Source: Saccostrea cucullata (lineage: Eukaryota). Taken from it: a DNA stretch of 64,000 nt. The position numbers were made by a program, and so were the translations under genes. The stretch spans positions 1 through 64,000 of the forward strand of contig NW_026921569.1 in NCBI RefSeq assembly GCF_032062105.1, read 5' to 3'. The notes beneath the pieces are model-generated. The model saw only the letters and a program-made list of their open reading frames with translations, searched no databases and had not been told where the DNA came from. Below are positions 19,716 through 40,800 of the stretch, piece after piece (positions within the stretch are counted from its first letter, which is position 1; every line of letters begins with the position of its first letter).

Positions 19716-22700
19716 ATGACAAAATGGAAGCATGTTGTTGAATGTAAGTAAATGCATGTATTTCTGCTATTAGAGAACACAAAACACGTAACGAACAAAT
19801 ATCTGTTTTACGAACTGTAAACTTGTTTACTTTGTGATTACCTGTGTAACTGACGAAACGTACGGACCAATCACTCGTATAGAAGTATTTAAATTTACAC
19901 AGGATCTTTTTATTTTGTATTACATGTAATGTTATGTACATACAAACATGTATACATATAAAATTGAATTGTAATATACGAATGTTCATTTTTGATAAAG
20001 GAAACTGTTGATTTTAAATGTACAGATACAGTGAAATTTTCTGTGTCCACTATAAAGTTCCTGCTGAGACTCCGTTTGCGGGATGTAAATCTCATGTGAT
20101 GTTCCATCTATGGCACCCAATACGTTTTGCATGTTGTTCCAGTGAGCACTCATGGATAACCATTTTGCTGCTGTTGGCCAGCGAATTTCTGAAGCCAGTA
20201 TGTCCCACAACATAAACCATGTTCTCTTCAAAATGTAGCCTACACTAGATGTACTTGCTCCGAAGCATAGAGAAAGCAATGGATAAGTTCGTTTCTGCCT
20301 AAGCCGTATTAATGTCATTAAAACTCTATTTTCTGAATTTATTAACTGCCCATTTCTCATGTTTCCATGCAACTCAACGTATAAGAAAAGTCTATTCATT
20401 AATTCTAGAAATGAATCAATCGTCTCACCACTCAGTATCCAGAACTCAAAGGGCCTCGATCTTAGGTCTCGGTAAGTACCCCAGCAGGTCCAGGACAAGC
20501 CCTGGTGGGGTCCAGAGGAGAAACCACCGGAAACTAAAGGATTCTAACAAATTAGAGTGTTTTTCCCTGTTAATTTTAAGATAATCCAATTAAAAAAAAA
20601 ATCAAATGGGGGGGGGGGGGCGCGTCCGGCGCGCCGGTGCTGGATCCGCCTTTGATAATTACAAAATGAATATGAAGCGAGTGATGGTATTCATAAACTA
20701 GTAATACGGTTAATATCGTCGAGTTACGTTCCTTTGTTGGGTGTTAGGTGTTCTCTATTAGATCAATATTTTACACAATTCTCAATTTTTGATAAAATTG
20801 CCAAGTGGGTTGAAGAAATACATGAATCAATTAAGAGGTTTAAGATGACACGGGCATATGGATAACACATCTTTAATTTGTTGTTTGTTTGTCTATTGTT
20901 TAACGTCCCTCGAGAAAATATATTACTCATATGAAGACGTCATCATTTGCCGGTGGAGAGCTGCAAATTTTGCCGTATATGTAGCACTCAGGGCCATTGA
21001 ATAGTGAGGGATCTTTATCGTGCCAACACCACCTGGGACCTCAGTTTATGTTGAGGAAATCGTGAATTCTGAATCTTTTTGCTGCTTCCGTACATCTTCA
21101 GGAAGTCTCAGAATATATGCTGAAATATATTGTTTGGAGATAACGAACAATATTCATATTTTAAAATTATGTTTAATATAACGCTATCATAATGAATATA
21201 ATTACAGAACATCAATTTTAATAATTGCATATACGCGTCGCCGGTAAAACTGTTTGCAACCATTAAATCAGCATTAACGGTCGCAAATACCAAATAAGAA
21301 GATAGTTAGTCCCTAATTTCAATTCATGAAAAAGTTTCTGGCAAGTTCTTTGTCTTCATAAACCGTGTACAAACTATTATAAGCTTCTGCAGAGGAATTT
21401 TCAAGATATACGTTTAACTTTACAGCCGTTCGTTTCTCGTTTAAGACTGAGTCAGCCATTTGTTGTCATGAGTGATCTACTTAATGAGGTCATTTTCACA
21501 TTGTGACGTCACAATCACTTGGCAAAATATTCCATAACATATGCTCTGTGTAGAACATGTGTGCCAAATTTTATTCGGATCTGAATTGTGGTTTTGTAAA
21601 TATAGAGATTTTTTATCACCCCATGTATGCGTCTCAATAAATGTTTCACAAATGAAATTACAAATAATATAAAAGTAACATACTGCATGTAACTTTTATC
21701 CATTTAATATTTATTCAATTGGAATTATAAAACAGGAAACTTTATTTGTGAAGTGGCAGGTATGGATAGATACATCCTGGCATGCCAGGGATCTTTAGTC
21801 AATACGTTGCCGTTAAACGCTTGGTATATTTCAATAAATATCCTTGGCTTGCTTTTCTTATTGAAAATACGAATAAATTTAAATGTTTTAATAATAGTCA
21901 GATTTAGTTGGCGATTGATTGAGAGGTAAGAAAGCTTTTCAATTTTCCTGAAAGACGTAGGTACAGTTTTTCCACGAATATTGAAAGAAATATTAGTATG
22001 TCAAGAGTCTAACAGCAACGTTAACGTGACGACTCAGGACCCATGGTTTGCGAGGATGGGTAGGGATCAATATATCTTAGTATGTGCTTCATTTTCACTG
22101 AATTTATAGAAACAAAAGAAAACCAAAACCCAAACTTCTATAACTAAACCATAATGTCTTAAATAAAGTTTTAGTTTATCACTAGTTTTACATGTATTAT
22201 ATTGTTCCCAGAAAAATTCAGCCAGAATATGAAATATACACATTGAGCACGCTCTCCTAGTTGTATTCTTGCTAGAAATAATATTGGTGAAATAAATATG
22301 TTTGATTCTATACTTTAAATCTAAAAGACTCTGCATTACACCGATGCGTTCAAGCTTTTCGATCATATTCATACACGTTCATACACGTTCAATGTAATAG
22401 CATGTGTTCATTTATTTTGTAATTGAATAGTCCACTTTGTTGTTTGAAATATCCAATGTTCAGTTGAAAATATAAAATATTGACAAGTGCATTACTAGAA
22501 ATGCCCTGCCATGCAGACCGTGTATATATATAAAAATAGTTTCAGCTAAGTTTTTTTTATATATGTCATGGATTTGGGGGAGGGAGTTACTAAGCAGACT
22601 GGCTTCATACCTAACCTATTTACCAAAAAGCATTACATTATAAATTCATAGTTTAATAACATGTATTAAATTTCAGGGTTCCTTAAATCTCTGATTTTGC

Positions 22701-25700
22701 ATTATGGTTGCTCAGCATACAACATAAACAGGTATGTATAAAAGTTTAAAGCAAGTAATATCAATTATAATTAAATGTGATAAGTATTATTCATATTCTC
22801 CTGGCTCTTTGTGGAAAAAATCTGAATAAGGGATTTAAAAAACACAATTATCTCTTCTGAATATTAAGTTAAAATCATAAATTGTTGGAGAAGAAAACTT
22901 TGGAATAAAAAAAAATTATGAGAAATAATAAAAGAATAATACATTAAGTAGATTGACAAAATCTATGAGTAAGGCAATTTTTAGTCTGTCATTCGGCAGA
23001 AGACACACAAAAATACTATAGTTGATAGCCGAATGAATGAAACTAATGTGAATAATGGTGTAGTTATATCAGACTTGAATACTTATTGAAAAAAAAAATA
23101 CTCATGCATGCAAACGTTACTGAAATTTAAATTTTGCTAATTCTGAAAACTCCTTGCTAAATTATAAGGGATGGCTCTTTTCGTATGCCGTGGATGACAC
23201 GAATTAAAATGAAGATACTGATGCGTGTCTGTTGGCTTGTAATAGATATCTGTCTAAATGACATCGTTTTCCTTAATTACCATGATGTCCAGAAATGGAA
23301 TTCTATCTGTACTTTCCTCCGCTGTAAATCTTATATCAGGATTAAGTTCATTCAGTAATGTTTTAAAGGTAGACAATTTGTTGTCGCTGTATTTCCAAAC
23401 AATAAAACAATCGTCCAGATATTTTTTCCAGTTATAAGTAATGTAAAGTTTCCCCTCTTCGTTGAACTGCTCTTCCATTTTCTTATACATTTTTTCTTCT
23501 AAGTATTCTAATGTGGCATATGTAGGAGCTATTTTTGTGCCCATAGCCGTTCCTTTTATTTGTTTAAAATGTTTTCCATTAAACGTGAATGTATTATTAG
23601 ATAGTACTATTTCTGTTGCTTCTGATATAAAATCTTTTGTAAATCTGCCGTTAATTTTGTCGGGATTTTCACTTATCCAGGAATCCACGGCTTCTAGTCC
23701 TAGGGAACTTGATATATTGCTGTACAAGTTTATTACACCCAGTGTAACGAGTTTACTGTTATTTTCCACTTTCTCGGGTAAATGACGTAGAAAATCAAAG
23801 TCATCTCGTACATAACTTTTGACTCCAGAACATAACGGTTTTAGAAGAATTACTGAGTCTCTGTGTTGGTGCCGATGGCCCACCTACTATTAGTCAAAAT
23901 GTGAGATCTTCTGAATAAGGAGAGATTATGTATTCCGAGCACTTGGACTTGATAGCCTCTTTTATATGTCTAGATTTACGAATCTTTTGCAGTCCATAAA
24001 AACTACTTTCACTGTATTCATAATTTATTAAGAAGTCTTCCTCTTTCTTTGTTAGACTTGATGTAGTTTTATTTTGTTTCAAAAGATTCTTAATTTTTGC
24101 ATTGTTTTTTTTCGTTGTTGTTTGGAATTTCTTCGTAGTACTCCGTATTCGATAGCATGTTCATTATATGAACTTTATAAAAATTAGAATCCATGATTAC
24201 AATTGCGCCACCTTTGTCCGCTTCTTTTATAACAATAGATTCATCACTCGACAATGATTGAAGTGCATTCTTCTCTTCTTTTGTTAGATTCCATTTTATT
24301 TTTGGTTTTGTTTTTATTCAGCGGCAAAGTATTTAATGTCTCACAAACAACATCTAGAATTTCGTTTCGTCCTTTCTTAGGGTTAAGGTGAGATTTGTTG
24401 CGTACGAGGTCTTCTTCCTCTTCTGAATCTGAATCACTCTCGTTTTCTTTATTGAAATATTCAGCTAGCCTCATTTTCTTGTTGTCCCCCGCTTGAAAAG
24501 TGGGGGATATTAATTTGGGTTTGTCCGTCCGTCCGTCTTTCTGTCTGTCTTTAATCGTGTAGGTCACAGTCAAGGTCATAAGGTCATTGACCATGAAGTC
24601 ATTTAAAAGATTAATACCAATGTTTATCCTTTGTTTAGTGCGATTATTCATTAACTATCAAGAGCATGTATTTAAATAAATGTGTCGCGTTTTTATGTGC
24701 AGGCTACATCTAATTTACAATGAGATGCCTCATAAAATCGTACTTTCGCAAGGGCATACACTTAATAGATCTTAACCATGTTTTGAATATAAATAAAGGA
24801 TATGTTCCTTAACTTGAAAAGTGCTGCTGCTTTCTTTAAATCGAGGGCGTGATTTTATAAGTACCCAAAATATTTGGTAAAAGTCAAACATATTTCGACA
24901 TTGGCTTATTTACCTGAAAATTTAACTATTAAAACGCAAATTCTATTCAAAGCAGCAGCACTTTTCAGAAACTACAAAGTATGCAGAAACAATTAATAGT
25001 TTGAATTTTTAATTTCAACTAGGGTATGCCCTTGCGATATTGAAATTTGTTCATGACCTACATTCAGTACACGAACTGTGCATTCTTCACGTGACTGTCC
25101 ATCGATTGGACTAAACTTCATACAGTACAGAGTGGACTATACTATGCTATTTCCATAAGTATTTGAGTTCTGTGATAATAAAACAGCTTAATTAAAATAA
25201 ATTCAGTTTTAAGAAGACCCCCCTTTCTGCACGTCTATTTTCCGTTGATTTCTCATACATGTAGTAGGCCTTAACAGAGCTGCGAAGATTTTGTTCTTAT
25301 GCAATGTAATTTTATACCAAAACTCCCTAGGACCTCTCTCACCTCTTTCAAAGTGCCCCGCTCCGTTTGTTTCATTAGTATTTATAGTATTATATGTCGC
25401 TATTTTTAGCAGAGGGGCATGAGGAGAGTTATTGCGCATAAAACAGGTTCTCGGCGGACTTTATGTTCTTATTACATCTCTTAGAACTGTTTAATAAAGG
25501 CTAAATAAATCAAACACCATGGATTGTGAAAAATTTTGACAATACCGAACATGAATATATACATGTATGTGATTTCACTTCTGCATATACTTGATGCTAT
25601 GTAAAGAGACTCCGTGGTCCAGTGGTATGTTTCTCGCTTCCCATGTGAGAGGTCCCAAGTTCAATTCCCGGGCGGACCACTTTTTTTCTTAGAAATACTT

Positions 25701-27706
25701 TATTTTTTTTTACTAAATAATAGTTATTCAGCACGCAAAATAAACAATTTACGAGGTCTAGCTTGTACAAACTCATAAAATCATCTTTACAGTGTGATAA
25801 ATATTCCGTATAAAAAGAATCTACTATACACATAATAAAGAATAAGCAATTAAATCTTTATATCCATAATGGTATATTTTATTTGTTTCAGCATACATGC
25901 ATGTATACATTTAATAATTCGACAAATTCAGTGAGGGGGATATGACTCTCCCCCCTCCCCCTGAACTGCGCATGTTTTACTTTTTCCTTAAGCGGGGGAC
26001 ACAAATGCTCTGAATTAGCTTGTATATTCTTTAATATCGGTCCTTAATTCTTGATTATTACTATGAGGCGTAGGAGTGAATTTTAAACCTTTGGATCACA
26101 GATGTATCTCCGAGTCACTTAAAGGTCTGTTTGAAAGGTTGATAACTTTTAGGGTCAACGTTTTTTGTTGTAGGTTTAGAATTCAAGTCTTGTTCCGCAC
26201 CTTTCGTCGTGTATTCATTGGGTGGTGTTAGTGCTTCTTGTACTTGTTTTACCAGTCCTGAAATAAGTTGTTTGCCCCTTGGTTGGGTTTGCCGCCCCCT
26301 AAAAAATAGTTTCTGGCTTTTTTTTCTATGTATGTCACACGGTTAGTTTTGTACATGTTGAGTGAATAGCCTTTAGATTGAAGATAATATATTTCGTCCC
26401 TTGAAGATATTTTTCCATATGTTCTAGGGTTCTGAATTGCTTTGAATGGAATACTTTGTTTGTGGATCTTTGGTTTACTAAACATTTGCTTTTTCTGAGT
26501 GTTGTATTTTCGCGAACTTGTCACCGTTGGTAGAGTGTTTTGTGTATCATATCTCGGTGGGTCGTTTCTAACGGCATCTGCATAATTTCTACGTGGCATT
26601 GCGTTGGCTTTTCTACTTTGTTGTTTTTTAACTCTTTTGTGCTTTGTAGGTTCCTTTCCATACTTATTCTCGTAATCTAACAGCCAAGCTTCCTTATATC
26701 GCCATTTGTTGAACGATTTCTGTTCTTCTCTTGTACAATCTGATTCCCACATTTTTAGAAGAATTTCGAGTACTTTACCTGATGCTTTGTTCCTTATTTC
26801 TTTTTCCATTTGTGAATCGAAATCAATTCTTGAAGCTTCCTTTTGTAATGCCAATTCATTAATTTCTCTTGGTAATAACTGCGTTGGGGATTGAATTGAG
26901 CTTACCTCGATTTCGGTGAAAACAGCCTTCAATATAGTTTCCTCTTCATCCAAAAGTGTAGGTACTTGATTGTGAACAGGTGGGATTTGACTGCATACAT
27001 CAATTAAATTCTCCAGCAGATTATTTGTAATATCCGTTTTGTTTATCATTAAATCAATTTTCTCAATCAGTTCTGAAAATTGTTCATTTCGTTCAAATTC
27101 TTTCTCCCTCTGAGTAGTACTCCGTGTTTCCATCTCGATCACTGGTAATGTATAGATAAATCCAAGAAAAATCACAGTGGTCGGTGATAAATATGAAAAT
27201 TATTTTAAATAAATAAAAACACAGAGAACGAGTAAAACATAAGCGCCTTCATTTCTTCTTCATGATGTTTTACAAAATACTCATGGTATATATAAATTCA
27301 TTTAAGGTATATCGCTTTTTTTAGTATGTTTAGATGCAAAATCCAAGGATTGGTAATTTTTAATTAATATGAATTTTTTTTGAAAGAGTATTCATGCAGT
27401 GTAATTTGAATAGTTTTCAACTTTAAGTGTTCTTTTGTTTTGATAACAAAAAATCACAATTTGAGCTGAAGTGTAAATAATTTAAAAAATTAAAAAAGAA
27501 ATATTATTTACCTTTAAGTGAGGTGTGCCTTCAAAAGTTGTTCGATTTTGCCTGGGGAGATAAGGGATGCAACTTTACGTTGGCAGATGCTAAACAATGG
27601 CTTGAAACAGGTAAGCAAATGAAAATGGTCCAATTCCGAGTTATGAAGCCATCCTTGGCCTAAATAGGGACTTTTTTAGGAGAGAATAATAATAGTAACT
27701 AGATGA

Positions 27707-27739
<33 letters not shown>

Positions 27740-30700
27740 TGAATTTCTCGATAAGATGAGATGTGATTTTGACTGAGATATTAGTTAAAAGAGAAAGACA
27801 TTAAGTTTTTCTTCATCAAATTTAAAGTTTCTGATATTTATCACGATAGTCTGAACATCTTTTGTTCAATATGGCTTATAAAAATGTTTCCCCTTTTCGA
27901 GACGTAATGCATAAAAAATATAGCATTTTGGCCCCTTGCAAACCTTATATCCATAAAATATGACCAAAATTTTATAACATATTGTTGCAAATCATTTAGA
28001 TGACTACTTTTGCTTCAGTGATGTATAACAAAATATTGATCATTAGAGAGTTATGGATTAAAGAGTTTTAGCCCTTCTCAGTCCCTTATCTGAGGGCTCA
28101 GCCCCATTTCTTTGGTATCAAATGAAAGGTCTTGTGATTTTGAAGATTTTTTATTCAGTATCTTTTCAGAGATTTCTTCTCGTTGTGGAGATAGGCTAAA
28201 TGGAAATATTCAGGGGCCACCCCTACAAGTCCTTAATGGGGCCGTTTTACAAAAATTCAAAGTATGGATATTGTTTAGAACATTATTCTGACCATCTTTT
28301 CTTCAATATTGCTTATCAAAATATTCCCCCTTTTTGAGATATAAAGCGTCAAAGATTTGAAATTCTGGCCCCTTTTGACCCCTAATTACGTAACATATGA
28401 TCAACATTTTATCATATATTGTTGCAAATTGTTAAGATGACTACTTTTGCTTCAGTAATATATAACAAAAAAATGATAATTAGAGAGTTATAGATAAAAG
28501 ACTTTTTGCCCCTTTGAGCCCCTAATTTGAGGGGTCAGCCCCATTTTATTGGTATCAAATGAAAGGTCTTGTAATTTTGCACATTTTTTCTTCAAAATGC
28601 TTTACCACATTATGAACAGGTATGAAGATATGAAACAAAATGTGTCAAATTTTGTGAGATATCTCTGAGACATTTTTTCGTGCCCAACCGAGCTCCGGCG
28701 CCTTTTGCGCTAGAAAGATTTGAAGACCCAATTGCAACTCACCAAACCTTCCTTTATTTTCACTGAAAATCTTAAGTCGATATCTTAAGTCGTTTCGGAG
28801 GAGTTTCCTGGACAAGCCGACCCTCTGAAAATCAGAAAATCCTGAATATCTCGAGATAAGAAGTGACGTCATCAATCAAAAAAATTTCCAATAAGGTTCA
28901 GATCAATACCTACCAGATCTGAAAGTTTCGTGAAATTTGGACGAGTCGTTTCTGAGAACTTGCGTGCACAAAATCGGTTGGAATAATAAAAGGGAAAAAG
29001 AAACCGAACGAAAACAATAAGGTCTTCCGTTGGAGACGGAAGACCTTAATAATTTCTCGTGTTGCATTTCAAAAGTTTTAGTTCGTAGTTGGAATAGCTT
29101 TGAAACAAACTGGCTATTTATATCAAACAGTGATGTCTTGTGTTATGCTAACTTTGGAGGTTAACATTCTTTATAAAATATGGTGAAGGAGTTTCATCTT
29201 TCCTTGGTTTAAACTCATTTAAAAATATTGTTAAATATTGTATACTTGAAAAGTTTCTCTCCAGTCTAATTTTATTGCCTTTCACGATCGTCGCAAAGGA
29301 GCATATAATTTTAATAAGGAAGGTAACATAAACTCTTCGGGGAAACTGTCTACGAAAAAATATAAAGTACTTAACAAATTTTATGATGCACAAGGTAGAT
29401 AACATTTTAAAAATAAGTTTGTAAATCGGATTAGTCTGTGTCGTAAAAGTATTACCATGTTTAATCATTATTATTATATTCAGTGCTGTTTTCTTATTTT
29501 TTTTCAGACACAACTCTTTGTCCTAGAAAATGTCGCGTAAAAATCAACAACTTAGATGAAACAAAACGGGTATTTGATACAAAGTATCGTTTGGAATTTA
29601 TCCATCTAAGATTCAATGTCTTGGTCGAAAATTCAATGAGAATGAAAAGGAAATGCATATTCTTAGATCCATCCAAAGATGGGAGGACAATGGAAATTAA
29701 TTGCAAAATAAATGCAGAAAATTGTAAGTTCTCTTATTCCATGAAGAAATATTTATTCTACTGAAAGATTATTTTATATGAATTAACCAAAAATTATGAA
29801 GAACAATTATATATATAGAGAAAATTCAACACCACCAGAACTTAATAATTATTTATTTGTATGTGGTGAGTATTGTCGTGGCATTATGCATGGGTCGCCG
29901 CACAAATTAATACAACATTGGCAGAACCACTTCAACATCAACATCAAATCAATCAATCAATCATCAATCAAATTCAGCAAATATAAACAAATTGACCGCC
30001 CTGGGTAATCCGCGGACGGTTACTTAGTTAATCTGTACTAATTTACATCAGGGGCCTATATACTAAGTATATAGTCCCCTGTTTACATACACAATCTGCA
30101 ATAATTATTTAATACAAAATGCAGTTTTTCTCCAATTTATCAAACCCAGTCACACAGCAATGTAGTTTGCATCAGCAAAACATTTTCACTCGATCAGTGT
30201 CAACCATTAGTCAACAATTATTTCCCATTAATAGTACTTAGTTAACATATCAGTTGACTTTAGTTTGCGCATACACCAAATGGCTGCAAACGAGTAAACG
30301 TTTGCAGTCACCCCACAAGGGAGCACCAAGTCAACTGACCCACGACAATACTGAACTTCCCTACTTATTTCCTTCCAGATGGACTGATTATAACTATTTC
30401 TGGAAATATCTCCCCTCCAGAGAGGTAAACACCATCTCAGAACCAAAAGGAGGTGATATCCTGTATAGTTTCTGGCAAACACACAAACAAAGGTCATGTT
30501 TAGCAATATCTCTATTAAAACAAACACAGGATCTCTCCATTGGCATTGCTTGATTGTATTGAACATACCTCCATTCTAAACAAAAAAAATTCTTGTTTTA
30601 TCTTATACTGAGTTTTACACTCTCCACCATCCTATCTTGATCATTATCTTCACAGTGAAAACTGTAAGAGACTAAGAGTACAATGTGGTATCATTTATAC

Positions 30701-33700
30701 ACTCTTCAAACAAAATCATTTCATATCATGAAAGTCAATAATCTACATAGGGTTCAAAGCAGAACAATTAACAAACAAATATCACTGCAAACTAACGAGG
30801 ATTTAGAAAAGATTAGTAAGTGGAGTGTACCCTGAGTTTACCACTTGTACCCTTGAGATTTTCATCTACCTGCATACCCCTTTTTTTCTAATTAACACCC
30901 CAATTCATATGAGCAGTGGCTGCCCCTATATTTAAGGACTGTGTTTTAAATTTTCCCCTATCCCCTATCCCTATTTTTTTAGAATGGTAAACTGATACTG
31001 TATAATAGCCTTTCACCCAGAATGACACACCAATGGTCCTTTGATTTTTATCCACAAGAGACAAATACTCAGACATGTACCTAACAGTGCATATACATGG
31101 TTAATTCACAAATTACTGTACAACATTGAATCCTTACCTAGTTACTCACTTACCCTGTTGAACAGACTTAATATTCAAGAACATTATACCTTGGTCAGGT
31201 TCAGTTTTGATGTCTGCAATCTGAATTATAACTGCAATGATAATAATTTTTGGGTGTAAAAGCAGAGTACATGTATACTACAAACCATGCATAATAAAAA
31301 GAACAAAACAAAACGATTAATTAATGTTGATGAAGAATTAGAAAGGTTAGATTCATGTGTAATTCTATGTACCTAATGTGGGAACACTTGCAAAATTTTT
31401 AATAATCATGTGATTGAAATAGTAAAAACTAAATATGTTGCTAATAAATTCCACCTTTTAATTGAATGCACTGCATTGTCAACATAACTTTGCTACCTGT
31501 TTCCTATGGCCTGAATTTATAAACTATAATATATGCATTTACATTAATCTCATGTACCCTATAATTAGAGGATTTTGAGTGAATAAATTAAACTGAACTT
31601 GTGACTTTATCTGAAATAACACTAAAAACTGATGGCAGCAACATACATTGTATGGCCTACAGCAACATACATTGTTTTACCTATCTGATAAATATGCATG
31701 TAGAGCATGAACATGACAAGAATGTAACTCACTGCACTATGTGACTTAAAAATGGTGGCCACATTTCTTTCTAATTAAAGAAGTAATGAAACTTTTGCAA
31801 TGAAAGTACAACACTTTTGTCTTTGTGGCCTAAGATGCCTCAAGAATCTTTCTACTTTAAGGCCATGATCATTCTCACAAATTCCTTGGTAAGCTTTTGT
31901 CCTTGGTGTCAGGTCCCTGAAATGCCTGTACATGCAGTTTATGATAACTTGTACCTGCTATTGAAAACACCTGGTATCTTCTTACCTTAAAAATATTTAT
32001 TATTAATAAATAATAATACTATTAATATTTATATTCATTTATTATTTAAATCTGCATATTGTTCAGACGAACTTTTAACAACCATGTGAAAAACTTTAGA
32101 CTGTTCAAAGAACTTTTTATTAACCGTGTCGTGATGTGAAAATTCTTAAATCCTTTGGTATAGTATGATTGTGTCTGAGGCATAAAAGCCATAACTTACT
32201 TGAAAAATAAAGAATTTTCCAATTTAAATATAACACAAAACTACTGTTGTAAACATAGCTTTGTATGTGACGTCATAGTATATTCACTTAATTGCTCGGG
32301 TACTTCCGTTTTGTGAAAAAAATCCAAGGTTCAAATCTTGATCCTGACGCATTGGGAGTAATACTATTTTTATTTCATTTATATATTGTAAATGTATTTA
32401 CATACACTGCACTTACCTAGCATAGGCAGTAAACGCAAACTATTGGGCTTAAATTGTATCGTCAAAAGCAGATCAACACAAGTTATAAAAGGAACCGAGT
32501 AAGAAATGTTAATGTTGAATAGGGCTCTCCCAATGGTTTCACCATCATACAAACCTATGAACTACAGAATCAGTGATCTTTATACAATCCATGAGCCACT
32601 TATTTCAGCACAAAACCATGTGTTTGCACAGCACACGACAATCCAAAAACATCGTTCGTTATAACATCAAAATAATTTTTCTTTGATATAAAAATTGTAT
32701 CATATGTATATAAAATTGCAATAATTTTAACAATTAACATTTCTTAAAAGCCAATCCGGCATATTTTTACCAATCTAAACGCTTGATTAATCTGTGACCT
32801 CTTTCCTGTTCAGCAACCCGGCATAAGAGGAAGCCCAAGCCCGATCTTAACTTTGAAGTCTGTATATCATACATCTAACCCGATTTGTTTTCTCATAAAA
32901 TAAATGCATCTATTTTATATTTCAAATACATGCTAATATTTAAAATTTAAAAGCTTTATATGACCAATGATCTTGATCCACCGAGGTCATCAAACGTTAC
33001 TTTATCATTACATGTCGCTTATTTGGTCATATTGAAACTATACATGTAGGTTTTTTTTTCATTTTATGCACATATTACTTTCTTTAAACCAGACAAATGT
33101 AAAAAGATGCAATCTCCATTACTCAACTCTCCGTTGAAGACTTGTTTCTATATCAACATTAAATTGTATCCATGGAATATCCCTTTTAATCTGACGCTCC
33201 AGATTATCAAACGCTGCTGAAGAACGTTCGATATGAAAATATTTCTATTTTTTAAGAGGAAAAAAAAATAAACATAACAAAAACGATTGCCCCCAAAAAA
33301 TTAGGTAACCCTTTCTTTGCAGTAGTAGACAGCCCAAAAGATTTGTGTACATCAAGCCATAATTGTACAGAAGAATCCAAGAAATGCTTTTTGACGGGAA
33401 AGATCGGGATCTGCGTATGCAAACCTGAGTATATAGGATTCGAAAATCAATGTTTAAAGGGTAAGTACTTACAGTCGCAGAATTTTATTCTACTATAAAA
33501 GGACCAATTAAGGATATCAAACAAAATGAAAAATAGAAAAACAACATAATTTTCCAAAGGATATATTAGCGCTCTTAAAAACCTGAGTATAACTCTTAAA
33601 CGAAGAAGAGGAGGAAGGAATGTGGTATCGAACTCGTTATTATTTTATTTTTTTTTTTCGATTTTTCCAAAAACCAGCGGATTTACGGTTATTTTACGGA

Positions 33701-36173
33701 ATATAATGCTTCTATCGAACTCATTATTATTGTAAAAAAAAATAAATAAATTTTTTTCCTGGTGTTGTATTTAAAACTTTTAGACATGATTTTTGAAGTT
33801 TGAAATAAATAACATATATTTGTCAAAATTTCTATGAAATTTCTTTCGGATTTAAATTTTAGGAACAAAAGTAGAAATTCTCTGAAAAAAATTATCAAAA
33901 AGCAAAACTATAGTGATATTCACGATATTTGATAAAACTGATACATGTATAAAGATATGTTAACATTCTGTGATTTTGTTTTGAAATCAATTAAAATATT
34001 CAATTCCTTTAATATTGAATGCACTTGAACACATGAAAACAGTAGGATCTATATCTACAATGCTCTAGGAAAACCAAAAGTAGAATATTGTTTTGCATCA
34101 TTTTGATTAAAACAATTACAAAAATGAATTTATCATTGAAATATAACAGCTGGATCATCTTAAGGGGGCCGACTATAGTTTTATTGTGTGAAAACTACAA
34201 TAGCGAAACTTTTCATTTTAATACCATATATAACATACATTAACTTCAGTGTACATGCAAAGTTTGGGGAAAAACTACCGTCCAGGTATTTTTGAAAAAC
34301 GTTCAATTCATAATAAAGATAAACAAAATCAAATATTATGAGGATAGAAAATTAAAGACCATTAAGTTTTAGCATTGATTTGATATTTTTTTATGCTGTC
34401 GGTCTTATTACACCGTCTGGAATACCGCTGTAAAGACGAATAATGACTCCCATCGAATAATGACCGGGAGGGATGTCATTTTTCAACGACGGAAAATGAC
34501 TCCAAACCCGTAGAAAAAGAATAGGCACATTGTCCTTATAGGTCACCTGAGCATCATGCAACAACTTTCCAGTGATTTAATTTGATTCTTGTTTTAAGCC
34601 AGATGCTATGGCATTCAATATTTTAAAAGAGGCAACATTGATCATCATAACTATACACAATGCAATTGCTAAGTTTGGTTACTTAATAGTTAATACCCAT
34701 AGGCAGGGTAGGGGAACAAAAACTGTATTTCAACTAATCAGTGATACTCAGCAATAATCAGTAGTGCCCCTACCACACGTGAACCCCTGACCATAGGTCC
34801 ACACATTGCACAATTTTTGAAAAGGCAACCTTGCTTTTCAAAATGTTTGATTAATACCAATGTGCAGATTTCAAACAATTTATTAATTTTCAGATATACG
34901 TACAGCCCCCCCCATCCCTTTTTGGTACCCCTGACCTTGGGGCCTTGAAATTCACAATTCTAGAAGATTATGAGGGCCCCTGCTCATCATAGATATTCGT
35001 GGGGGATTAAATTTCGTTTATTTCGTTGTTAACAATTTTCAAAGTAATTAAATCCCACACGGAATTTTATGACTATATATGGAAAAAGCTTACTCTCAAA
35101 ACAACAAATTAAATGCCAACGAAACTATTTTCGATGACAGATCAACGAAATTTCATATACCCTTATAAAATTTGTGCTTCCACCAGTATATAGGTAGTTG
35201 ATTTGCTAAATACCCAGGAGCAGAGAAGAAAATTTTCAAAGATTTAAGAAATTTTAAGTATTTTTCACAATATAATCAATAGAGCCCCACCCTAACACCA
35301 GAATTCCTGATCCTGGGGCCATAAAATTCACAATTCTGGTAGAGGCACTCTTGCTTATCATAACTATGCACTTAGTAAGATTATTTAAAAACCAGGAGCG
35401 GAGAAGAAGTTTTTAAAGAATTAATGCATTTTCACTATATAATCAATAGAGCCCCGCCCTAACACCTGAAGCCCTGACCCTGGGGCCATAAAATTCACAA
35501 TTTTGATAGAGACACTCTTGCTAATCATAAATATGCACTTAGTTAGATTATTTATTACCTAGAATCAGAGAAGAAGATTTTCAAAGAATTAATGCATTTT
35601 CACTATATAATCTCAGGCCCCTGGGAGACAGGGATCCTGAAATTCACAATTTTTGTTCCCCTTCACCCAAAGATGCTTTATGCCAAATTTGATTGAAATT
35701 GGTTCAGTGGTTGCAGAGAAGAAGATGAAAATGTTCAAATGTTAACGGAAACGGCAAGACGCACAACGCACGACGACGGACGAAAACGGATAGCAATAGG
35801 TCATCTGAGATTTTTTTTCAGGTGACCTAATAATAAGATAGAAACAAAAAAAAATCAATTTTTGAAGGTCATTATTCTATGGGGTCATGATTCGTCTTTA
35901 CACCGGCGAACTATCATACGGAACTTTTATGCTCTACATAAAACGTTCAATACTTAATTAATAATTAATAATTAATACTTAATTAATAATTACAAGTAAT
36001 AACATACAATTTAAAGGAGCACCTTTGTTCTTTTTCATCAGGAAATTTGAAATTAAATGATACATGCCAGCGAAATGAGCAGTGTTCTGTGGTATCAGGC
36101 TTGGTTTGTCAGAATGATACATGCGTACGTGGGCGTGGATATGTACCACTGAATGATTCAGAATGTTTTCCAT
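19716..36173 (+). CDS. Paralog 2: signal peptide, ~105-aa Cys-containing domain and two EGF/EB-like modules. Exons 19716-19743, 22677-22731, 27519-27610, 29508-29723, 33323-33460, 36042-36173. 3' end unresolved
   Basis: Six GT-AG exons join into a 220-codon open frame (MTKWKHVVEWFLKSLILHYGCSAYNINSEVCLQK...). The last two exons are clearly homologous to 1633-1764 and 1954-2088. Confidence 0.8.
19986..20498 (-). mobile_element. PIF/Harbinger (ISL2EU/HARBI1-like) transposase fragment in intron 1 of paralog 2
   Basis: HTH segment LMTLIRLRQ..FGASTSSV, IRWP, first catalytic motif GAIDGT, YSGHRKFHC; truncated before the remaining DDE residues. Confidence 0.8.
20890..21050 (-). mobile_element. Truncated V-SINE; positional counterpart at 60590-60752
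   Basis: V-core sequence with the same downstream flank in both paralog introns. Confidence 0.7.
24480..26022. mobile_element. HINE-type element nested in the Penelope-like element
   Basis: Hairpin TCCCCCGCTT..AAGTGGGGGA, (GTCC)n microsatellite, matching subterminal AAGCGGGGGAC at ~25990. Confidence 0.65.
25608..25679 (+). pseudogene. tRNA-like remnant (CCC anticodon loop) inside the element
   Basis: A box GTGGTCCAGTGG, stem CTCGC/GTGAG with loop TTCCCAT, B box GTTCAATTC, T-run terminator; acceptor stem imperfect. Confidence 0.45.
27697..29050 (+). mobile_element. Complete HINE-type element with internal ~430-bp tandem repeat
   Basis: 5' AACTAGATG..AGGTCTTCCGTTG subterminal repeat; 3' hairpin AAGGTCTTCCGT..ACGGAAGACCTT. 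Confidence 0.75.
29810..32940 (-). mobile_element. Unclassified non-coding element, monomer (see findings)
   Basis: Both termini and the internal hairpin module are homologous to 53254-59142. Confidence 0.65.
34428..35902. mobile_element. MITE containing a nested HINE (~34515-35830) with ~170-bp satellite-like repeats
   Basis: TIR TGTAAAGACGAATAATGAC / GTCATGATTCGTCTTTACA; hairpin AGGTCATCTGA..TCAGGTGACCT; three repeat units at ~35200-35700. Confidence 0.7.
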
Positions 36174-37229
36174 GTAAGTTTATTTTTTATCAATGTATAA
36201 ATATTTTTACAGTAGCTAAATTGTTATTACAATACTTACTTTTTCCACTACTATTAATTTTTTAAACTAGAAACACATTTGGTCGGCTGATTGGAACATC
36301 AGTGAAGAATACAAAACATGCCGTTCTCATGAATAATTAATGCATTTGTCATTCCAATTAATGAATAAAATTATTTTACCTTTTTACCCACTAGATCTAG
36401 ATGCATTCATAAGATTGCTAAAGTTCTGAATTTATCTTACACTTCTGTCAACACTTAGGCTCTTCAACAAACTTCCTCAACTGAATGAATTGACATTGTC
36501 ATTTCTCCACCTGATGCATTTTTAGTCCAAAAGAATCGTTTTTTATTTGCATATTAGTAGACTTTTTCCCATCGACTTTTGACATATTGTTTACATGTTA
36601 AGCGACGTTGTTACATGCTGTCCATGAAATCCAACGAGAAAGTGTGCATAAGAAATACAGTGTATAATAACTTAAATTCTTTGGTGGAAATAAATAGAGG
36701 TTTTGTATTATTTCAATAATTCTGCATATCACAGCGCAGTCTGTTGGATATGCGTCTTTATCGCAGACGCAGTTATTATTTAATCTACACTGCGAAATTG
36801 CAACTCTCCATTTTTTGGAGGAATTATCGTCCTTTTACATCATGATGAAGCGAAGCTGAGACGTAGGAAAACAACAAGAGATAGACGTCAATTTTTAACC
36901 AGAAGATAGGCGGTATCGTTCTAAAATTTTATTTTTTGAAAACGGTAAGTTGTTACTTTCTCGGGATTTGCGATGATTCTTAGTGAATTACTTAAAATAT
37001 AATTTAATTGCCGAAGTTCAAAAATTTCCATGCACAATGCCCGAGGAAAGTAGCACATGCCGAATCGCATTTGTTCAATATCTTAGTTTAAAACAGGTAA
37101 ATGTATACAAAATAATCATATATAGAGGAAAATATACTATCTAAATTGCTTAATCGCTAACGTTAATAATAATAACATAAAAAACTTTCACGGGTAGAGA
37201 TTTTTGTAGGCAAAAAATAAATCATGCCA

Positions 37230-37800
37230 CTATGGAAATATCGAAAGTCGAATAGTCCATATGCCAGGCCAGCGCCAGCTACAGAAACAATATCGGCACC
37301 GCCCCAATCCACTGGCACAGTCACCACACACAGCCATACTTCCATAGAGGTATGACAATGTCGTTACCCGCATCAGTACCCCCCAACGGAAGCAAACAGG
37401 ATCACAGAACAGCCTGATCAAGATAATGCAGGTAAAAGTACTTGTGTGGGATATGAAATTCATACCAGCAATGATAATAACGATCTTTTGACCCCCAATA
37501 CCATAGACAACACATCATTTAAGTTAAGGTTTAACGTCAATGCGACTACTCGTACTAAAATAGTAGAAGGCCAATACGTAGACTTGGCCGAGCTTTTAAA
37601 AGTTCAACCTTCAGAAACTCCCAACAATACGTTTCATATCAAAAACACAGGGAACTTAATTTTAAAGCCAGAACCCCCCCCCCCCCCCCCCCCCAAAAAA
37701 AATACAACAATCCAAAAGTGGACAGACGCATTCTTGATATTTAGAAGCATTTATCTTTCAGTTCAAAAAGACAAAACCCAACACTTACTCAAATTCAATG
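37230..37800 (+). pseudogene. DIRS/Ngaro-type gag-like fragment
   Basis: KIVEGQYVDLAELL..TIQKWTDAFLIFRSIYL..LLKF resembles gag of tyrosine-recombinase retroelements; no RT or YR seen. Confidence 0.6.
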
Positions 37801-40800
37801 CACGAAAAGCTGAAATTATTTACTTACTTTTTTGCTGAATAAAATCTTTTGCTCTGAATATGATCTCCCTTCTCAAATTATGAAAGATGCTAACGTTGCT
37901 TGCAACCAATGAAACCTCTGTCAATTTAATATATGTAATAAATCTAATCCTTAGTTAAGAATTTTTGTTGTTATTTGTACAGTTTTTGTACCTTTTTTGA
38001 TGAGCTTTGTAGAGTACTCACATATTTCCGTGTGGTCAAATTTTCGTGGTTTGAGGAAAAAATGTTGGTTCGTTGGGATTTGATTTCGTGGATAAAGAAC
38101 TTTTTAGTAGTTGTGCATATCAAAATTTATATTTCGTTGTGAATATGAATTGTGGGTCTGTTCATACCTCGAAAACAACAAAAATTACCCCCCCCCCCCG
38201 AAACGTAGTGATTTCACAGTATTTTCTTCCAAACTCATGTATTTTTAAGGCCCCTGTACATTATCCAGGTCCAGAACATATCACATGTTTGTGTGTTCTT
38301 TTTGACATTTCTCCTTAAAACGTTTAATTTATTATAATAAGCAAAAAACATAAAAAAAACACAAAGTAGTTGTTTACTATCATTTAATCACAATAATAAA
38401 ACAGTTATTGCGGTCAATACGGTGATTAGCAACCTTCGAAATACAATATTCAATATTGTACTCCTCAGATGTCGTAATGATCGAATTCACCATAAAACAG
38501 CAAGTACATTGCATTGTATTGTATAAATCTTTATAAAAGATTTACTGATTACATATTAGATGTTAGGTTTTTAAACAGTTTGATGACAAATATATGGGAT
38601 ACATAAACAAAAGGTATATTCTTTAAAATGCAAATCACATATTTGTGGCAAAATATATTCATTAACAATATTTACATGTAACTCCACCAGAAAATGATTT
38701 CACTTTTCCAGAAAATGATAATGTTGACAACCCTTATTAAAATGGATTTTGACTAGAAACCCAGTTTATAAAACCCCCAAAAAGTCCTTGTTTTTGGCTT
38801 GCTGTTTGGAGATTTTTCTTGAACGTTGAATCCTGAAATAGATATGCAGTCATACATTGATCTAACTAGGTATAATCAAGAGAATACGTGTGTTTTATAT
38901 TTTTAATAATTTAAATTATATTTTAACAATTTTTAACTTGTAAGTTTGTATAGAAAATAACTCTATCACTAGCAAAATAGTCTCGCTAGTTTAAATGAGT
39001 ATTTTGCCATAGAAACTAAAATCAATAAACATTTCGACCACTTTGAAAAATGGTATTCATATTTATTGCTCCTGTCAACATAAATTGCTGGTCATTTCAA
39101 TTTTATTTTAAAGTCGAACGATGTTTGAAGGATACAGAACTTGTAAATTCATAGCATTAACTGTAGTATTAAGCTAAAATAACACAAACAAACTTTCTTC
39201 AGAAATCAGCATTATTTCTCATAGATTTACATTTAAATTGACAACCTGAATAATGTTTACCAAGTAGAGTTGGAGAATTTTATTAGATTTTGTCATAAAG
39301 TTTTAAAAAAATGTGCAAAATTTTGTATGGAATTATATAGAAGGCAAAATAAAATCTCAAATCTAAGCACCAAGGAAAACCTACGATTTCTTTATATTTC
39401 AGGGATTTATTATTTATATCAATACAAATCAAAATCAGTCAAAAAATATATATCAACCCGCGCATCCATTTTTTGTTTGTGGTAAGTACCCTTAATACTG
39501 TATACAAATGTACAACATTTGCTATAGTCCTTCTATATTCAAAACAATTAGATTCTAACTGTATATCATAAAAATTGGGTCGAGGAAGAGTTAAGAATAT
39601 ACGTTGGAAAAACTCAATTAGAATCATTAGCTCTTACATGAACAAATGTTTTTTGGAAATCTACTATATTGATAATGGATAAAAAATGTGACACAAAAAT
39701 GCTAGGTCGATCTCGAGAATTGTCTATCTATATCTGCCGAAATTTACATGTAGGAGAACCTATCACATTAAATTCGTATAAATACAGTTAATTTCGACAC
39801 TAACTTTGCCGTTTCCAACCTCGTTCAATATTACTAGAAGTAGCAATAGGAGTTGAATTTACATTTGAAAGCATTAGAAATGCTTGAACAATAATTTTGT
39901 CATAATATATATTAGAAAATATTTAGCTTAATTGGTAAAATATACCTTTGATTTCAATAATCAAGAAAAAAAGATTTTTATTTAAAGATGGAATCAGACA
40001 TAAATTAGTATAATTTTTACATAATAGAAACAATAGCTTCATACAGAGTCTTCTGAAGGATTTTTCTTTATCTGAAGCCAAGCAATACATGTTTGGGACT
40101 TCACAAAAGGGGGGGGGGGCTTTCAATGATAGCTTTAAAAAATTGCATCAATACAGAAAAGATGATCGATAAAGGAGACTCAAATACCAGTGGGCATGGT
40201 GCTTTTCTTGATGCTTACAATACTATTACAAATTGGAATAGAAATGTAACAGAAAGTAAGAAGAAAAATTCGATTAAAGTTAGGACATTAATAATAATAA
40301 AATGTTCATTTATTCTTATTTATAAAAAAGGATATTTCATTTTTGATCTGTGATATAGAGTTTGCTATTCATTGGTGTCTTTGGGTTACCTGACACCGGG
40401 TTACCTTAAAGAAAGAGACTTCTAAAATGTATTCATTATGGGCAGACACTAGTTAGAATGATCTAACTGTGTGTCGGTACAAGCCCTCACCATAGTTAGA
40501 ATACGTCCCATGTACTTGCAATGTAGCAAATCGGAGCGGATCTGCTCCGAAACGATTTTGAATGATATAAAATGATTTGCACTTGAAATAACTACCAAAA
40601 TACATGTAATCAAAACAAACCTTTTTGAGATTCCTTATGCCTTTTATCCCCCAAAAATAACCCATATAAATACGAAAATTCAATCAATTTTCTCAATGTT
40701 TTTCTCTCGCTTCAAATTAAACTGCCATGTTTACATTCAAAACTCTCCAGATTGTTCGTAGTAAATGCACCGAGTACGAGTTATCGGCTGTGTTTCTTTT

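Follow-up and report, generated by a model that had tools for sequence, protein, structure and literature searches.

This locus raises the question of what a cluster of hairpins closed by an inverted repeat is, and to what kind of element it belongs. In the window, the whole 64,000-nucleotide stretch of Saccostrea cucullata DNA that was analyzed, a sequence-only reading had described such a module twice and had taken it for a selected RNA or single-stranded DNA structure. Both pairs of closing arms were confirmed: those of the first copy (29869–29881 and 30340–30352) are exact reverse complements, and those of the second (53318–53331 and 53866–53879) are one base longer each, with one mismatch that is a G·U pair on the minus strand. 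The inner stems were found where they had been placed, as was the nearby AATAAA, on the minus strand. A 501-nt region with the module folded better than 100 of 100 shuffled sequences on both strands (z of −4.9 for the minus and −5.3 for the plus strand). In the GGCTGCAA/TTGCAGTC stem, a G·T on the plus strand is an A·C on the RNA (minus) strand, the mismatch being fixed; this is a single position that speaks against the RNA strand. The supposed second copy represents a different lineage, with a core about 74% identical to that of the first, and a third, partial copy at 49101–49657 is the B2 repeat of the element that holds copy 2. Nor is the module one repeat unit, as 30278–30352 is unique body sequence and only 29806–30277 is repeated.

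Both window copies sit, on the minus strand, in Ngaro tyrosine-recombinase (YR) retrotransposons with split direct repeats (Table 1). Instead of being an isolated unit, the module is a part of the Ngaro element and straddles the border between its body and the B1 repeat. The order in a full copy, read on the minus strand, is A1-Y-B1-A2-X-B2, where Y is the body and X a spacer, which was always present here (140–410 nt). Element B has this layout, and the internal B1|A2 junction was found in 15 of 20 family-B stretches, the remaining five being A-Y-B only; among 11 family-A contigs the complete layout was seen in five, element A of the window itself being without A2-X-B2. A search of the 1.17-Gb genome with the junction hairpin led to intact relatives, which have the same module and encode a gag-like protein, reverse transcriptase (RT), YR, and a GDSL-like hydrolase. 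In the partners L179 and L164, the RT and YR ORFs matched PF00078, PF02899, and PF00589, and the SGNH hydrolase ORF that follows YR matched PF13472/PF00657 at E values of 5e-6 to 6e-3, under the Pfam curated cut-off; no methyltransferase match was obtained in the eight partner ORFs scanned. The elements were assigned to Ngaro because split repeats together with RT, YR, and hydrolase fit the definition in the portions available of PMC9210276 and PMC8547959. The core is common in the genome: its pattern had 73 exact matches vs none for the reversed control, and each core version had at least 40 matches among the best 40 of 114 and of 142 candidates scored.

A Helitron2/Helentron origin had been suggested by the terminal hairpin and the head-to-tail units, and was dropped when the partners found via the shared junction proved to encode RT, YR, and hydrolase, not Rep/helicase. 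We consider it practically excluded that the module is a Helitron2/Helentron tandem acting on DNA, or that the arms are MITE terminal inverted repeats with target site duplications (TSDs), which the sequence-only reading had named as the case against itself. A hairpin does occur at the true ends of the element, together with short inverted repeats; the arms themselves lie inside it, with one end 63 nt away and the other at a distance of kilobases. As read from the element ends, both termini and the B|A junction of 29 elements carried a short TAAT-like core, with no longer duplication, hence no TSD.

Table 1. Parts of the two Ngaro elements in the window (all on the minus strand; RNA letters refer to the sense strand).
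Feature	Position	Strand	Remarks
Element A	29806–32945	−	non-autonomous Ngaro copy, lineage A1; A1-Y-B1 only, internal deletion
A1 repeat of element A	32731–32945	−	begins with 5′ hairpin
Tyrosine-recombinase remnants, decayed	30891–31900	−	tblastn pieces 30891–31208 and 31708–31900
Hydrolase ORF, decayed, C-terminal part	30367–30579	−	
P1 5′ arm	30340–30352	−	in unique body end Y
P2 5′ strand	30328–30337	−	in Y
P3 hairpin	30310–30324	−	C-rich/G-rich
P4 hairpin	30282–30309	−	
Y|B1 border motif	30274–30280	−	UGGUG here, UGGCG in sister copies
B1 repeat of element A	29806–30277	−	
P2 3′ strand	30251–30260	−	at B start
Conserved hairpin in B	29993–30022	−	self-complementary hexamers in loop region
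Conserved hairpin in B	29890–29930	−	directly before arm
P1 3′ arm (B-end arm)	29869–29881	−	pairing possible with Y arm or X arm
CACCA	29864–29868	−	right behind arm; CGCCA in most families
AAUAAA	29852–29857	−	
Element B	49101–59142	−	complete non-coding Ngaro copy A1-Y-B1-A2-X-B2; two later insertions (~50181–53086, ~54467–55540)
A1 of element B	58873–59142	−	
P1 5′ arm of element B	53866–53883	−	extendable over GCCA with one bulge
P2–P4 core of element B	53770–53863	−	UGUGGCG at 53792–53798
B1 of element B	53254–53794	−	arm 53318–53331, CGCCACA 53311–53317, AAUAAA 53302–53307
A2 of element B, first part	53087–53259	−	B1|A2 junction hairpin near 53230–53260
A2 of element B, second part	50070–50180	−	split off by insertion
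C-rich tract at start of spacer X	50053–50068	−	G-runs on cDNA strand
Spacer X of element B	49658–50069	−	alternative arm P1′ at 49686–49695
B2 of element B	49101–49657	−	arm 49165–49178, CGCCACA 49158–49164

The insertion of about 1.07 kb inside element B has 26-nt imperfect terminal inverted repeats (MITE-like), and the unrelated 2.9-kb insertion that splits A2 contains a perfect 54-bp inverted repeat at 52187–52294. Most of the family-B copies retrieved have a SINE fragment in their body (57451–57684 in the window), and it also occurs in the A1-lineage spacer X (C10054); the fragment was therefore carried along by retrotransposition. Similar short palindromes at 30049–30081 (B of family A) and 53168–53195 (A of family B) are probably a tiny mobile palindrome. 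Elsewhere in the window, a truncated copy of another Ngaro family lies at 36715–37840 (plus strand); an internally deleted copy of that family (L047, 5507–9589, minus strand) is nested in an A1-lineage element on C4109 and C10864. The minus strand also holds a transposase fragment with HTH_Tnp_4 (19986–20543), a 316-aa open frame without a Pfam match (26249–27199), and two stretches (21935–23883 and 60969–61924), again without a Pfam match, which we take from their motifs to be decayed Penelope-like RT pieces. Arrays of 167–168-bp tandem repeats, presumably similar to Helentron-borne satellites, were noted at 35262–35612 and 43951–44493, one of them beside a microsatellite (43724–43781).

The pairings of the module were then compared among Ngaro families of the genome. 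Based on a hydrolase search, the best 150 of 1017 candidates were scored, and 60 hand-picked over the score range plus five known copies gave 65 elements; 42 of them had a clean B1/B2 pair and fell into 22 families, the other 23 being dropped because of a missing pair or nested duplications. The 22 families do not represent independent cases, being related to one another, and the sequences had already been inspected when the arm regex was written. The same pairings recurred in all 22 families with family-specific letters. The body Y gives the P1 arm, a P2 strand, and the P3 and P4 hairpins, from B come the partners of P2, at the start of the repeat, and of P1, close to its end, and spacer X ends with a second arm (P1′) for the same B partner. 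The conserved multi-stem fold includes invariant unpaired bases. In the 21 anchored families, duplexes formed within a family were stronger than those with arms swapped between families: −23.5 vs −16.2 kcal/mol for P1, −19.1 vs −13.1 kcal/mol for P1′, and −22.4 vs −16.6 kcal/mol for P2 (Wilcoxon p ≤ 1.3e-4 in each case). A core fold with z ≤ −2 was obtained for 18 of the 22 families, compared with two of 22 for the B body, and an ungapped-helix shuffle test was significant in 10–11 of 22 families per helix vs 2 of 22 in the control, both control matches being real distant P1 arms.

Double changes were found at nine of 30 predicted core pairs (11 sequences, seven lineages). Covariation across copies, claimed at first from two of them, was thus present both as double changes between lineages and as the preference of the strands for their own partners. 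On the sense strand, the ratio of G·U to A·C was 26:5 vs 123:134 in shuffles; this large excess of G·U favors folding on the sense RNA, and the module likely folds on the RNA of the element. Pairs of diverged copies showed that B1 matches the B2 of its own copy over the whole length and in all thirds (e.g., four and three differences within vs 19 between copies), hence B is regenerated whole. In the L238, L241, L244, and L263 families, the P1 arm lies 120–350 nt upstream of the border vs the usual ~80–140 nt, so the tether tolerates long inserts. A hairpin stands at the start of the A repeat, and the end of B pairs in many families with the stretch just behind it, giving a branched B1|A2 junction (~53230–53275 in the window); this is a candidate site for the recombinase, possibly acting on folded single-stranded DNA. 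One intact Ngaro element on C387 (L162+L161) has an extra A-X-B unit (A1-Y-B1-A2-X-B2-A3-X-B3) with repeats 99–100% identical and three junction hairpins spaced about 850 and 5,460 nt.

Selection on the core was also seen in a lineage that no longer codes. In lineage A1, the genes for gag, RT, YR, and hydrolase are decayed. Large deletions are shared by most or all of the five copies compared, and of 87 places with frame-breaking indels, 36 recur in at least four of the five. As these disabling changes are shared among copies, the lineage spread after losing its proteins. Family B had no coding remnant by tblastn at E 0.01. When six A1 copies were compared with the intact relative L179, identity was 96–98% in the core, 85–89% in the B hairpins and arm, 75–78% in the B body, and 58–76% in RT, YR, and hydrolase, so the core is under selection even though this lineage is coding-dead. 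Exchange of template with a helper could contribute to the core identity of the A1 copies, which would imply a function too. Coding constraint on the module was rejected as an explanation, since the hydrolase stops upstream and indels between lineages disrupt the frame. A spliced captured gene, considered because of GTAAGT-like motifs in the body, was dropped as well: RNA reads contained no canonical splice joint, and the lineage-A1 body is decayed Ngaro coding sequence. The initial claim of a selected structure therefore stood, with covariation across lineages, the sense-strand bias, and conservation in a coding-dead lineage in its favor; what that claim had missed was the type of the element and the fact that the module marks the border between body and B1. 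Of the roles it had suggested, a priming scaffold would agree best with the data. We regard it as close to certain that the module is a cis signal of Ngaro elements, and it probably acts in reverse transcription.

The edges of the repeats are marked by fixed motifs. In each of the 22 families, TGG(C/A) starts within −4 to +2 of the B1 edge, the background rate being 47 of 484 windows; at the X-side edge it occurs only in three families, those whose repeat includes the motif. In all 21 regex-anchored families, GCCA follows the start of the arm motif by 12–16 nt, and the same holds for L216, where it was located by hand. The base after UGGC is associated with the base before GCCA (15/1/2/4, Fisher p = 0.009), and 4–5 nt of complementarity between the border and the GCCA segment are present in nearly all families. 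Several observations limit the weight of this pairing. Pairing of UGGC with GCCA showed no preference for the own family (−10.8 vs −10.5 with swapped partners, p = 0.72), a Watson–Crick pair is restored in only two of the six families without G after UGG(C/A), one family has UGGA vs GCCA, and in most lineage-A1 copies UGGCG stands opposite CACCA. Because P1 itself can cover at least three bases of GCCA in 15 of 22 families, GCCA may simply belong to P1. A scheme in which the Y arm would cover GCCA and the X arm would leave it free was considered as well; stronger masking by the Y arm was seen in 13 of 22 families. The other border is marked by C: in all 20 families for which A was defined, the first 14 nt of spacer X contain 9–11 C, vs 0–6 at A1|Y, and the C3 runs at its start number four in 13 of these families and three in seven.

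The preferred reading, to which we assign a probability of about 0.4, is that the RNA primes its own reverse transcription, its 3′ GCCA end acting at the border UGGC. It is favored because the inner edge of B is a UGGC inside a selected fold that tethers the end of B, which carries the complementary GCCA. Where a retroelement repeat begins or ends is decided by priming, by a stop, or by strand transfer, as established for LTR elements. We infer a route in which the transcript A1-Y-B1-A2-X-B2 would have the GCCA that follows the B2 arm as its end, either directly or after trimming, P1 would tether this end to the end of the body, and P2–P4 would present UGGC. Just as the CCA of a tRNA pairs with a primer-binding site, GCCA-3′ would then pair with UGGC, and RT would copy Y, jump from A1 to A2, and copy B1 until halted by the primer duplex. 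Such a halt would make UGGC the 5′ edge of B, both B copies deriving from B1. The C-rich tract at A2|X may fix the other edge through strand transfer or stalling, and the recombinase would finally integrate the product at the B|A junction. AAUAAA is situated downstream of GCCA in most families, so that the scheme must assume trimming, and by itself it leaves the likeness of A1 and A2 unexplained. The fuller version, in which Ngaro elements self-prime via a tRNA-mimicking GCCA 3′ end docked by a multi-stem RNA on an internal UGGC and a G-quadruplex-type cDNA tract fixes the other edge, seems to us speculative and somewhat unlikely as a whole.

Primer-binding sites canonically begin with UGG, and TGGCG is present in 16 of 22 families, which would suit a host tRNA priming at UGG and positioned there by the fold. 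The letters after UGGC vary freely among families, leaving 4–5 bp for such a primer, and we find this origin of the primer quite improbable. The fixed C-tract bears on another unlikely possibility, that the module acts in plus-strand synthesis: the minus strand would start at the 3′ end of the RNA, a structured piece of border RNA with UGGC at its end would remain to prime the plus strand, cDNA G-runs at A2|X would stop synthesis, and the resulting [B1A2] DNA would bridge both cDNA ends like DIRS's internal complementary region (ICR). One intermediate would then cover both fixed edges and the homogenization of both repeats, the three or four C3 runs would have a role, and the DIRS ICR, according to the accessible part of PMC7192593, works after first-strand synthesis. 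Against it, UGGC does not form a purine tract, no clear role is left for P1 or for the complementarity of UGGC and GCCA, and the G·U bias indicates folded RNA and not an RNA:DNA hybrid.

Transcription was followed in three unstranded oligo-dT runs of one study, made on other individuals, the reads coming from many copies. For family B, depth was ~100–740x over B, A, and X and ~2–85x over most of the body, rising toward the 3′ end; joint reads numbered 161/344/150 for X-to-B and 5/26/7 for A-to-Y. The A-X-B reads far exceeded the A-Y reads (L124 9103–9514 vs 4262–7780), which may be due to 3′ bias or to a short transcript of its own, started at a TATA-like box in A2. Between L124:8755 and 8772, i.e., the arm plus GCCA segment, depth dropped from 232/409/256 to 93/171/90, a drop that internal priming on an A-rich tract can mimic and to which 3′ bias may contribute. 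Among the 5′ and 3′ ends listed for the three runs, no pile-up or sharp end was seen for the module. The reads show that the elements are transcribed and say nothing on the primer.

Read depth was continuous from B1 into A2 and X, and P1 closes 11 nt ahead of AAUAAA, as might be expected if the fold acted before reverse transcription, allowing read-through of the B1 poly(A) signal or serving packaging, export, or stability, with the border motifs as protein-binding marks. The self-complementary hexamers in a B hairpin would agree with such a role, and selection in non-autonomous lineages fits packaging equally well, but the position of UGGC exactly at the repeat edge in 22 of 22 families is left unexplained, and we hold this reading to be improbable. 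The conserved multi-stem fold with its invariant unpaired bases and sharp edge might also recall an unrecognized ribozyme cleaving itself at the Y|B1 border, one of the options raised at first. It is very unlikely: Rfam gave no match in the window at the gathering score and none in four module-bearing loci at E ≤ 1, the CUGANGA core is absent on both strands, in agreement with the early remark that the hammerhead core is not matched, RNA reads span the border with no end listed there, and cleavage would divide the template.

The element is a new member of a known superfamily with a real, selected, and apparently undescribed RNA signal; the literature searched gave no account of this fold or of the border motifs, and the Goodwin/Poulter/Butler reviews, Repbase notes, and supplements, which were outside the search, may bear on this point. 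Young intact and non-autonomous copies coexist in one genome, and the border motifs help to recognize non-coding Ngaro derivatives that otherwise resemble Helitron tandems. If true, self-priming together with a G-tract edge would be a complete non-LTR route regenerating split direct repeats. Chlamydomonas TOC1 is a non-autonomous derivative of split-direct-repeat YR elements from another superfamily, and the Mauriceville plasmid has a CCA end. The closest known systems include Ngaro elements of the DIRS order such as Xenopus DIRS-53_XT (PMC9210276) and Cafeteria Ngaro1–4 (PMC8547959), described as A1-ORFs-B1-A2-B2 in the text available from both sources. Like the elements studied here, they have split direct repeats, gag-like, RT, YR, and SGNH/GDSL hydrolase proteins, and truncated repeat products. 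The same portions mention no RNA fold, border motif, or C-rich tract, whereas all three occur here together with a spacer X that is always present; the window copies, unlike the known Ngaro compared, are non-autonomous. VIPER/SIRE, as far as the consulted part of PMC6681497 goes, also comprise non-autonomous derivatives of split-direct-repeat YR elements, SIRE being A2-spacer-B2, but belong to another superfamily and have no such fold described.

In the accessible part of PMC7192593, it is described as unknown how YR retrotransposons start reverse transcription and which primer is used by elements of the DIRS order, with a 3′ hairpin suggested for DIRS-1; a covarying fold and two fixed border motifs in 22 families bear on this question. 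According to the same text, the DIRS-1 ICR resembles the module in being internal, near the 3′ end, and complementary to terminal-repeat sequence, with proteins supplied in trans. It belongs to inverted-repeat elements and acts after the first strand, whereas the short arms described here lie in a direct-repeat element and appear to be paired in RNA. In the RNA of diversity-generating retroelements (DGRs), the part consulted of bioRxiv 10.1101/2023.10.23.563531 describes cis-priming in which flanking RNA structure places an RNA duplex and sets the stop, a likeness in a bacterial/phage system with an unrelated RT and product. Self-priming is known for Tf1/Tj1, where, in the available text of PMC4600332, the element's own RNA is likewise the proposed primer and is set by long-range pairing; in Tf1 it is the 5′ end of the mRNA that primes, in an LTR layout, whereas the candidate primer in Ngaro would be the 3′ GCCA, with its site deep in the RNA.
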